64,000 bases of DNA from Gammaproteobacteria bacterium (lineage in GTDB: Bacteria > Pseudomonadota > Gammaproteobacteria > Eutrophobiales > Eutrophobiaceae). This document shows, piece by piece, positions 42,589 through 43,704 of the stretch. Each line of letters begins with the position of its first letter. Position 1 is the first letter of the stretch. The stretch is taken from the NCBI GenBank assembly GCA_965116495.1, contig OZ220696.1:1856001-1920000 (forward strand). Reading direction: 5' to 3'. Under the pieces are notes generated by a model that had not been told where the DNA came from, searched no databases, and saw nothing but the letters and a program-made list of their open reading frames with translations. The position numbers and the translations under genes are program-made.

Positions 42589-43704
42589 ATGATCCTCAAT
42601 ACCGAAACCGAGCCTGAGGAATTGGGCCCGGTAACAGAAGCGGATTACAACGAGTTGTTCTGTCAGGCAGTGAGCGGTGAATTGGAAGTCCGCCACAGTT
42701 ACAACTTTGATGCGGGTAGCAGCTACGTGATTGTGGATTGTGAGACGGCGAATACGGTGTGGGAAGGGGGGCTGGACAAACGCAGCAGCTTGGACAGTAT
42801 CCAGCAGGCGCTGTTTTTTCATCACGTAACGGGCAAGACGCCTGCGCTGGTGATTTATGACACGGATGGCGTGGAGGGGATTTACGAATATCGAATACGC
42901 ATCGCCGCCGAGTTGGCTGGCGTCCGCTATGAAACCTTCAACGGCAGGGACAGTGTGATAGACGATACGACTGGTTCTGCCTTTGCCGATACCCTGGTTG
43001 GTGATAATAGCGCCAACGTACTTTCTGGAAGCGCTGGCGATGATACCTTGGCGGGCTTGGCAGGCGCCGATCAACTCATCGGTGGACCAGGTCTTGATAC
43101 TGCGGATTATTCCGCCTCCAATGCGGCTGTCATCATCCGCCTGCACAGTCAGACTGCGTATGGCGGCCATGCCCACGGTGATACCTTCCCGGACACCGTT
43201 TCCGTATCCTACCGCGACACTGATGGTATTGTGCGCAGTGTGTTATTGCCGGATATAGAGAATCTCACCGGCTCTGATTTTGCCGACATCCTGGCTGGCG
43301 ACCGGCGGGACAATGTCCTCGAGGGTGGGGCCGGGGATGACACTTTGTACGGCGGACCCGGCGGCGGTGATGATCTGATGCTGGGTGGTACCGGTGACGA
43401 TACCATTTATGGGGGACAAGGCGCCGATATCCTGGACGGTGGAACCGGAAACGATTTGCTGATAGGCGGGCCTGACGCTGACACGTTTGTCTTTGCGCCG
43501 AAGCATGGTGAAGACACTATCAGGGACTTTGCAGGCGGCGAGGACAGGATAGACCTGAGTGCATTTAACCTCGATGAGAATTACCAGCCTGATTTATCCC
43601 TCCAGGGCGATGGGATACTACTTGACCTGACTGACGTGGACGGCGGCGCCGTGTTACTGGCCGGATTGGATGTTATGCCTGACGGTGGGAGTTTTATAAT
43701 TTAG
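42589..43704 (+). CDS. RTX (hemolysin-type Ca-binding repeat) protein with N-terminal PD-(D/E)XK nuclease-like domain
   Basis: Multiple GGxGxD nonapeptides, DTFVF..HGEDTIRDF..GEDRIDL tail; N-terminal EADYN..C...E...VDCET...WEG...QQALFF..TGKTPALVIY. Confidence 0.8.
   Translation: MILNTETEPEELGPVTEADYNELFCQAVSGELEVRHSYNFDAGSSYVIVDCETANTVWEGGLDKRSSLDSIQQALFFHHVTGKTPALVIYDTDGVEGIYEYRIRIAAELAGVRYETFNGRDSVIDDTTGSAFADTLVGDNSANVLSGSAGDDTLAGLAGADQLIGGPGLDTADYSASNAAVIIRLHSQTAYGGHAHGDTFPDTVSVSYRDTDGIVRSVLLPDIENLTGSDFADILAGDRRDNVLEGGAGDDTLYGGPGGGDDLMLGGTGDDTIYGGQGADILDGGTGNDLLIGGPDADTFVFAPKHGEDTIRDFAGGEDRIDLSAFNLDENYQPDLSLQGDGILLDLTDVDGGAVLLAGLDVMPDGGSFII

Follow-up and report, generated by a model that had tools for sequence, protein, structure and literature searches.

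What would a restriction-endonuclease-like domain do at the front of an RTX protein, and is such a protein exported by a type I secretion system? The question is raised by a gene at 42589..43704 (+ strand) of a 64,000-nucleotide stretch of DNA (the window, C1:1856001-1920000) from a genome of the gammaproteobacterial family Eutrophobiaceae, assembled as a single contig of 4.34 Mb. Its 371-aa product is predicted to comprise a short acidic leader, a PD-(D/E)XK-fold domain, an RTX beta-roll region and, at the C-terminus, a region with the secretion signal, and an initial annotation had read it as an exported nuclease or nucleic-acid-binding effector. The explanation that we tentatively favour, from sequence comparison and structural models, is a nuclease or phosphodiesterase that depends on metal, is secreted by a type I system, acts outside the cell and has a rebuilt active site.

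The gene and its surroundings

The N-terminal motif given in the initial annotation is present: E17-x2-Y20, C25, G30-x2-E33, V49-D50-C51-x-T53 and W58-E59-G60 are followed by Q72-Q-A-L-F-F77 and T81-G-K83-x-P85-x-L-V-I-Y90, except that three residues (HHV), not two, separate FF from TGK. The RTX calcium-binding repeats that it reported are equally clear. They occupy residues 119-302 in two blocks (42943..43494, + strand), match Pfam PF00353 in five stretches (E 4e-27; 94 bits against a cut-off of 23) and include six GGxGxD-type motifs, located by pattern search at residues 147, 165, 246, 266, 275 and 284. The only other Pfam match of the ORF is the serralysin C-terminal model (Peptidase_M10_C), which lies over the repeats; residues 1-120 match nothing in Pfam. 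As claimed, there is no signal peptide, the N-terminus lacking a hydrophobic stretch (best 9-residue hydropathy 0.77), and the net charge is -10 for the N-terminal domain and -52 for the whole protein. The full gene is covered without difference by one contig in each of three sequencing runs, all from a single study that is possibly the source of the assembly. An antisense ORF at 42391-43176 was dismissed as a shadow because selection was found in the + frame, and a promoter and terminator scan of the gene stayed at chance level.

The neighbours are a divergent dienelactone hydrolase, a convergent tautomerase and a Mutator-type transposase fragment, beyond which lie genes that we take to be ntrC, ntrB and glnA. 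The tautomerase gene (window 43950-44390) is AT-rich and, with the transposase fragment (Mutator family, 44507-44803), lies between the fusion and ntrC. Neither a type I secretion gene nor an immunity gene is adjacent, in agreement with the initial annotation, and no ATG-start ORF of at least 35 aa is found on the same strand within 600 bp downstream. Two repeats border the gene. Upstream, a 58-bp palindrome (window 42357-42414; 22-bp arms, 14-bp spacer) recurs at about 29 other places in the genome at 78-89% identity, many of them between 3.53 and 3.84 Mb and with varying spacers, and is REP- or MITE-like. The end of a second repeat starts at the stop codon (window 43699-43754) and is found at 23 places in the genome; elsewhere it terminates a 230-bp element, and a copy of this element flanks a paralogue of the domain at C1:4239000.

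Fold of the N-terminal domain

An AlphaFold model of residues 1-120 has a mean pLDDT of 89 and runs helix, three strands, helix, strand, helix, strand. A search of 48,161 PDB representatives with this model placed NucS of Pyrococcus abyssi (PDB 2vld) first (Z 10.2, rmsd 2.2 over 89 residues), followed by AF1548 (Z 9.6), VC1899 (9.1) and Can2 (8.4 and 8.1), five chains in all reaching Z 8 or more; an XisH-like protein, PaqCI, CdiA-CT, Card1 and SfsA come lower, and the first small GTPase stands at rank 16 (Z 6.3). We take all of the top 15 rows to be restriction-endonuclease-fold proteins. Foldseek returned no PDB entry at E <=0.001 (best, Bax1 at E 0.016), while among viral models it gave five rows at that threshold (best 9e-6), with Cas4 and endonuclease I entries after these. 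In the ESM Atlas the nearest clusters are unnamed, and the nearest named one, XisH at 0.83, serves as a lead only. The full-length model, unreliable over residues 1-240 (pLDDT 48.6), was kept out of the fold search.

Sequence searches are silent on this domain. The single sequence matched nothing in the PDB, and its profile reached E 0.13 at best; among 57 family members no domain match was obtained at cut-off in Pfam, NCBIfam or PHROG, YHYH_alt on N-terminal extensions being the only match, and 74 diverse members found nothing in PHROG better than E 0.002. The model nevertheless gives good support to residues 16-118 (42634..42942, + strand) as a PD-(D/E)XK core. From its secondary structure and the structurally aligned range, the acidic ligands expected of the superfamily on helix 1, strand 2 and strand 3 would be E17, D50 and E59. 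The fold proposed in the initial annotation is thus the one that the structure search recovers.

A putative active site with a possibly displaced basic residue

The predicted metal site and its replacements span 42637..42819 (+ strand) and include E17, D50 and E59 as the canonical acids, G61 at the canonical Lys position, D63, K64/R65, D69, Q73 and, at the Tyr position of NucS, F77. Conservation was counted in 100 rows (99 representatives and the query, the rows being about 35-60% identical to the query); these counts are inflated, because it was a profile of this very motif that picked the rows. The acids E17 (90), E33 (93), D50 (98), E59 (95), D63 (96), D69 (97) and E100 (96) are conserved, as are G61 (96), K64 (75), R65 (91), S67 (96), Q73 (98) and K83 (94); D91 and D93 belong, with E33, D63, D69 and E100, to the additional conserved acids. 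Two positions after the strand-3 Glu, where the canonical Lys would stand, Gly is found in 96 of the 100 rows and Lys in none, and at position 77, the Tyr of the NucS-type Q-x3-Y, Ala (54) and Phe (43) prevail over Tyr (1).

NucS/EndoMS and the Mrr/RecB-like E-D-ExK-QxxxY nucleases share the core fold with this domain. Active-site residues of P. abyssi NucS include E127, D160, E174, K176, Q187 and Y191, of which Y191 is called key in the passages used of PMC7343888. The structural alignment range puts residue 16 on NucS 126, and hence E17 near E127; a profile alignment with NucS-like sequences sets E59 on E, G61 on K, Q73 on Q and F77 on Y, yet this comparison (HHalign against eight NucS-like sequences, probability 0.5%) is not significant, so the register depends on the structural range and a weak alignment. 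With that register, E17, D50, E59 and Q73 would occupy the positions of E127, D160, E174 and Q187, so that the acids and the Gln would be kept, whereas Gly replaces K176, Phe or Ala replaces Y191, and D63, R65, D69 and a Cys pair are additional. The fusion also differs from NucS in lacking the N-terminal DNA-binding domain and in bearing export signals, and the NucS model PF01939 matches neither the fusion, nor the family members scanned, nor any protein of the host genome.

A candidate for the missing lysine is provided by a sister family (described below), with which HHalign, using six sequences, sets R65 on a Lys and D69 on a Glu. A loop-borne basic residue would therefore be common to both families, each placing it, in this alignment, after strand 3, and R65 may be a migrated basic residue that replaces the canonical Lys. 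Migration of this Lys with function preserved is described for the PD-(D/E)XK superfamily in the part of PMC3424549 used here, and so are inactive homologues. The initial annotation had correctly identified Gly61 at the canonical position, and its proposal that the Lys is shifted to the LDK motif holds for K64 in 75 of the 100 rows and in 12 of the 15 fusion clusters (the other three have Arg, so that position 64 is basic in all 15); K64 is not invariant, however, and Arg65 is the better conserved, although D or S takes its place in two of the 15 fusions. R35 is lost in nine of them.

The cysteines C25 and C51 (42661..42741, + strand), which would link helix 1 to strand 2 next to the putative ligand D50, are invariant in the 15 fusions. 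Of 96 rows, 65 have the two cysteines, 26 have neither and five have only one, a covariation that suggests a disulfide, with a Fisher value that is too strong since kin rows are not independent. About 17 Roseobacter-type rows without a signal peptide still carry both cysteines, which weakens the idea of a disulfide switch.

Whether such a site would cleave phosphodiesters we consider an evenly balanced matter. The acidic surface of the domain and of the whole protein argues against tight DNA binding, and a less probable but serious alternative is that the domain, although secreted by a type I system, is no nuclease, its acidic pocket binding a metal, a cationic ligand or a substrate other than nucleic acid. 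The family-wide loss of the canonical Lys and Tyr, the many extra conserved acids, the strongly negative surface in the fused clade and the fact that the standalone form often comes with a YHYH domain rich in His and Cys (110 of 321 proteins) all speak for that possibility. Decayed active sites, on the other hand, usually lose their acids, whereas here 90-98% of the rows retain the acids and the Gln, and the position of the sister-family Lys still has a basic residue. The existence of inactive homologues in the superfamily lends this alternative further weight (PMC3424549, in the part used).

An unnamed family of probably exported proteins

The domain has 338 homologues of near-equal length by single query and 905 by profile; at 50% identity they form 302 representatives. 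A hydropathy rule finds a hydrophobic stretch at the N-terminus of 254 out of 321 proteins that contain the full domain, and 109 of these 254 carry a YHYH-like His/Cys motif; NF033223 is matched at E <=1 by 18 of 57 members. A further 15 of the 321 are RTX fusions, 14 (18 after four were moved by hand) have no peptide and mostly finish in an acidic tail whose end is DFGW-like, and the remainder are for the most part short forms without a leader. Some 900 clusters make up this unnamed family, and roughly 80% of them have a signal-peptide-like N-terminus. Small standalone relatives, as supposed in the initial annotation, do exist, but most of them bear a signal peptide.

Several variants deserve mention in their own right. 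The acidic-tail form without a signal peptide (L031:4335-4760, L037:5001-5435; P0003-P0010) ends in DFGW or FWGF and is sister to the RTX fusion; its tail is possibly a repeat-less type I signal, and in L037 it follows a serralysin-like RTX gene at a distance of 322 bp. Members from the Roseobacter group (L091, L093, L095, L098-L100) start at helix 1, lack a signal peptide, retain both cysteines and share a conserved C-terminal helix, W-x-MT-x2-LR. Other architectures (P0221, P0170, P0163, P0156) comprise a protein of 452 aa in which four stretches are matched, a fusion with YHYH and PKD-like parts, and two proteins with unnamed extra domains. The host genome itself has five further copies of the domain, all of the signal-peptide type (two whole, one without its N-terminal part, two broken), at G000:C1:2149756-2150403, 3195017-3195345 and 4233963-4254994, three of them within 21 kb. 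The signal-peptide paralogues are 93-98% identical in DNA, and congeners have up to 11 matches; these copies undergo rapid birth and death with no evident mobile unit. A mobile cassette was considered, as the DNA common to the paralogues ends near the gene, and was rejected, as no common terminal repeat was found.

The sister family, likewise unnamed and made up of small PD-(D/E)XK-like proteins, is homologous over 97 columns (HHalign 99%, E 7e-18; six sequences, four of them closely related) and comes from Nitratiruptor phages and two genomes; one member is NrS3_34 of Nitratiruptor phage NrS-3 (BCD83150.1, 'hypothetical protein'). It shares the C...VDC.T and Q-A-L...TGK patterns and has a hydrophobic N-terminus, but reads E-x-D...K...E...Q...Y where the present family reads E-G-G-L-D-K-R...D...Q...F; its six sequences include no RTX fusion and match nothing in Pfam, PHROG or NCBIfam. 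Its genes (L186:2917-3312; L116; L117; L187-L189) lie near a repressor gene in temperate-looking phages of vent Campylobacterota. In phages, only this sister family was found at E <=0.001, in four Nitratiruptor phages; viral contigs (one pattern search) and plasmids yielded no member of the domain family. None of 62 loci from a metagenome scan matches the fusion past residue 147.

The best 80 of 159 genome loci belong to marine Gammaproteobacteria, Binatia, Alphaproteobacteria, Arenicellales, Poriferihabitaceae, Nitrospirales, SAR202 and Roseobacter-group genera, many of which we presume to be sponge-associated. When the 734 ORFs around these 80 loci were clustered, no neighbour recurred in more than six loci, and thus nothing points to an immunity gene or an operon; in a genome sample, none of 16 partners of the YHYH domain, read by eye, had a nuclease domain.

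These results bear on the suggestion, made in the initial annotation, of an effector directed against a competitor or host, which finds no backing in a protein with no immunity gene, no delivery domain and a domain charge of -10. It appears improbable to us that the fusion is a toxin entering other cells to attack their DNA or RNA. Its structural neighbours do include CdiA-CT and the T6SS effector TseT (Z 7.4, 7.3 and 6.3), several relatives come from taxa that we regard as sponge-associated, and endosymbionts have restriction-endonuclease effectors without immunity proteins (Tox-REase-8; PMC3482391, in the part used). Yet the 371 residues contain no pore-forming, translocation or protease domain, no neighbour is conserved in the best 80 loci, the DNA similarity of the fusion loci ends by the stop codon, and the cytoplasm of a target cell would presumably reduce the disulfide. 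The exported restriction-endonuclease fold (structural Z 6-7) is shared with Tox-REase-1 to -10 and CdiA-CT/TseT, but all ten Tox-REase clades keep D-[EQ]xK according to the same part of PMC3482391, whereas the present domain lacks it, is N-terminal rather than C-terminal and has no immunity gene; the table passage of that paper does not list the T1SS among the routes of these clades.

The probable export route

A type I exporter elsewhere in the genome, for which the initial annotation advised looking, is indeed encoded there. PrtD (675 bits) and HlyD (372 bits), both over cut-off, are found at C1:3669971-3673425 and are followed at 3673710 by an outer-membrane factor of 157 bits, under the TolC cut-off of 225, the cluster as a whole covering C1:3669971-3674900; a second outer-membrane factor, a TolC over cut-off, is encoded at 3823261. 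This PrtDEF-type exporter is unlinked to the fusion gene, being 1.8 Mb away, and adjoins a block of RTX genes. By our own pattern the host genome has 19 other RTX ORFs, of which six match M10 peptidases and one is reprolysin-like, none is a nuclease, and 12 have no catalytic peptidase domain, matching only RTX, PPC, FG-GAP or M10 C-terminal models. For its roughly 20 RTX proteins (400-1900 aa), most of them unlinked to it, the genome has one PrtDEF-type exporter. Two very long ORFs, of 8355 aa at 2499420 and 3183 aa at 1367941, were also seen.

The RTX region of the fusion is 34-53% identical to the other RTX ORFs of the genome, and its last 76 residues (296-371) match 15 of them at E <=3e-5. 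From this homology the C-terminal region (43495..43704, + strand), which ends in GSFII, is predicted to be the type I secretion signal. At their extreme C-termini, 11 of the 15 fusions read D-(F/Y)-hydrophobic-hydrophobic, and three, the present gene included, read S-F-I-I; a motif of this kind is known from PrtG. Type I substrates of this sort have been described as carrying a motif at the extreme C-terminus (PMC3430570, in the part used), and RTX proteins, in the passages used of PMC3034196, have an uncleaved signal of about 60 residues and exporter genes that are 'mostly' linked. In three other fusion-bearing genomes HlyD is over cut-off in one, partial in one and missing in one (2.0 Mb, possibly incomplete); it is also over cut-off in the genome of an acidic-tail gene. 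The median charge of the domain is -11 in RTX fusions and -15 in acidic-tail proteins, as against -3 and +1 in the signal-peptide classes, and T1SS substrates tend to be acidic (PMC8277102, in the part used).

Judged by these sequence features, the fusion has what marks an RTX type I substrate, namely the repeats, the missing signal peptide, the C-terminal region and an ABC transporter, membrane fusion protein and outer-membrane factor in the genome, and we regard its type I secretion as probable. With PrtDEF/AprDEF-secreted RTX proteins such as serralysins and family I.3 lipases it shares GGxGxD repeats, an acidic chain and the absence of a signal peptide; its C-terminal region is common to the serralysin-like proteins of a host genome that also encodes a PrtD-type transporter. 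It differs from them in its passenger, a restriction-endonuclease-fold domain, and in being unlinked to the exporter. It is neither a serralysin, having no M10 catalytic domain with HExxH (NF035945, 101 bits against a cut-off of 500), nor a haemolysin, having no pore-forming N-terminal domain (NF033943, 83.9 bits against 1000, from the repeats only). A search for the HlyC acyltransferase matched nothing in the host genome, but nothing in any control genome either.

The large share of RTX ORFs without a catalytic peptidase domain (12 of 19) could also point to an RTX protein of the surface or matrix whose small domain serves for adhesion or assembly, but the domain is far commoner alone than fused, has the same polar pocket in both states and sits in a protein that is short for an adhesin, which leaves this reading with very little likelihood.

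Conservation of the fusion

A search for longer proteins gave 19 matches among 549 candidates, 15 of them, the query included, with RTX repeats. These 15 fusion clusters are 74-85% identical and align without a gap at the junction; 14 are 370-371 aa long with the same start, and one is shortened to 320. For five fusion copies with DNA (10 pairs), dN/dS is 0.04-0.09 over residues 16-118 (seven measurable pairs, three saturated), 0.02-0.06 over the core residues 48-114 (eight measurable pairs) and 0.08-0.14 over the RTX part, the neighbouring hydrolase giving a control value of 0.07; the core is thus under tighter constraint than either the RTX part or the hydrolase. Distant copies have reached or almost reached saturation at synonymous sites, with a dN of about 0.1. 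The ORF is not a product of chance, because the domain has hundreds of homologues, 14 further fusion clusters exist and purifying selection acts in frame.

One congener keeps the fusion at the same locus: in this syntenic orthologue (L021) it stands behind the same hydrolase-containing block, which we read as prpC-prpB-hemB-hydrolase, whereas three other copies (L022-L024) lie at other places. The region behind the fusion differs in L021, and DNA similarity among the fusion loci stops at or before the stop codon. Upstream of one copy (L024:586-3804) lie genes for a cyclic-nucleotide synthase-like protein, a patatin-like effector and an HTH and metallopeptidase pair, a set that we take to be CBASS-like. 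The domain is present in 12 of 22 congeners, but its fused form only in one (G008, two copies), and none of 60 other genomes of the family Eutrophobiaceae contains the fusion at E 1e-90 among the best 32 candidates per genome. The fusion is old and maintained, and its architecture is narrowly distributed. By the initial annotation, a deletion chimera of two unrelated genes would have refuted its reading. A chimera of this kind, recent and without function, or an artefact of assembly might be suspected from the many RTX genes, the broken domain copies and the repeats on both sides of the gene, but either is scarcely credible given 15 clusters with a common length and junction, synonymous sites near saturation against a dN of about 0.1, purifying selection, the syntenic orthologue and contigs that cross the junction.

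A 55-row tree unites the RTX and acidic-tail rows on one branch (95/92) within the signal-peptide rows; two of the latter, one of them long-branched, fall inside that branch, so that the RTX rows are not strictly monophyletic in this tree. A quick 122-row tree places the RTX rows in one clade (SH-aLRT 84). Both statements are subject to the shortness of the alignment (114 columns) and to a common acidity that could itself attract RTX and acidic-tail rows. The fused clade likely arose from a signal-peptide ancestor by loss of the peptide, acidification and capture of an RTX tail, steps whose order is inferred. Export looks ancestral because the standalone relatives mostly bear signal peptides, and the novelty of the fusion looks to be a change of export route rather than export itself.

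Discussion

How might a type I-secreted nuclease or phosphodiesterase of this kind work? The unfolded acidic chain would be recognised through its C-terminal signal and exported in one step by a PrtDEF-type system; outside the cell, calcium would fold the RTX roll and Cys25 and Cys51 would oxidise. E17, D50 and E59, probably with D63 and D69, would then bind Mg or Mn, and Arg65 (or Lys64) would fill the space left by Gly61 and replace the canonical Lys. Folding only after export would spare the cell's own DNA, and this would account for the absent immunity gene. A likely use is the breakdown of extracellular nucleic acid or small phosphodiesters for nutrient salvage or for turnover of matrix or foreign DNA, in which the protein would act beside the secreted metalloproteases of the genome; its RTX tail would have been taken from the host's own RTX repertoire.

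In its widest form this proposal becomes doubtful. It would hold that about 900 exported, disulfide-locked PD-(D/E)XK nucleases have an E-G-G-L-D-K-R site with Arg for Lys, and that one marine gammaproteobacterial lineage moved its member from the Sec to the type I route by capturing an RTX tail, thus making a T1SS-secreted nuclease that acts outside the cell on nucleic acid of host, virus or community and needs no immunity protein since it is folded only outside.

A secreted PD-(D/E)XK family has a precedent in PF10107 (PMC3424549, in the part used), although none of 57 members of the present family matches PF10107 at E up to 1. In the passages used of an RTX review (PMC3034196) the word 'nuclease' appears once, in a reference title, and the openly available papers searched, mostly as listings and abstracts, contain no description of the domain family or of an RTX-fused restriction-fold domain. 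The architecture is real, conserved and apparently undescribed.

The fusion adds a new class of passenger to the RTX proteins, and it brings to light a family, still without a name, of exported restriction-fold proteins whose site is non-canonical and which is spread over many marine phyla. Being small, with a single such domain, the protein would be easy to assay. If it proves inactive, it would be a modest new RTX architecture. If it is active, it would extend PD-(D/E)XK chemistry to a site with Gly at the Lys position, and would offer a clean natural case of one domain changing its export route with matching shifts in charge.
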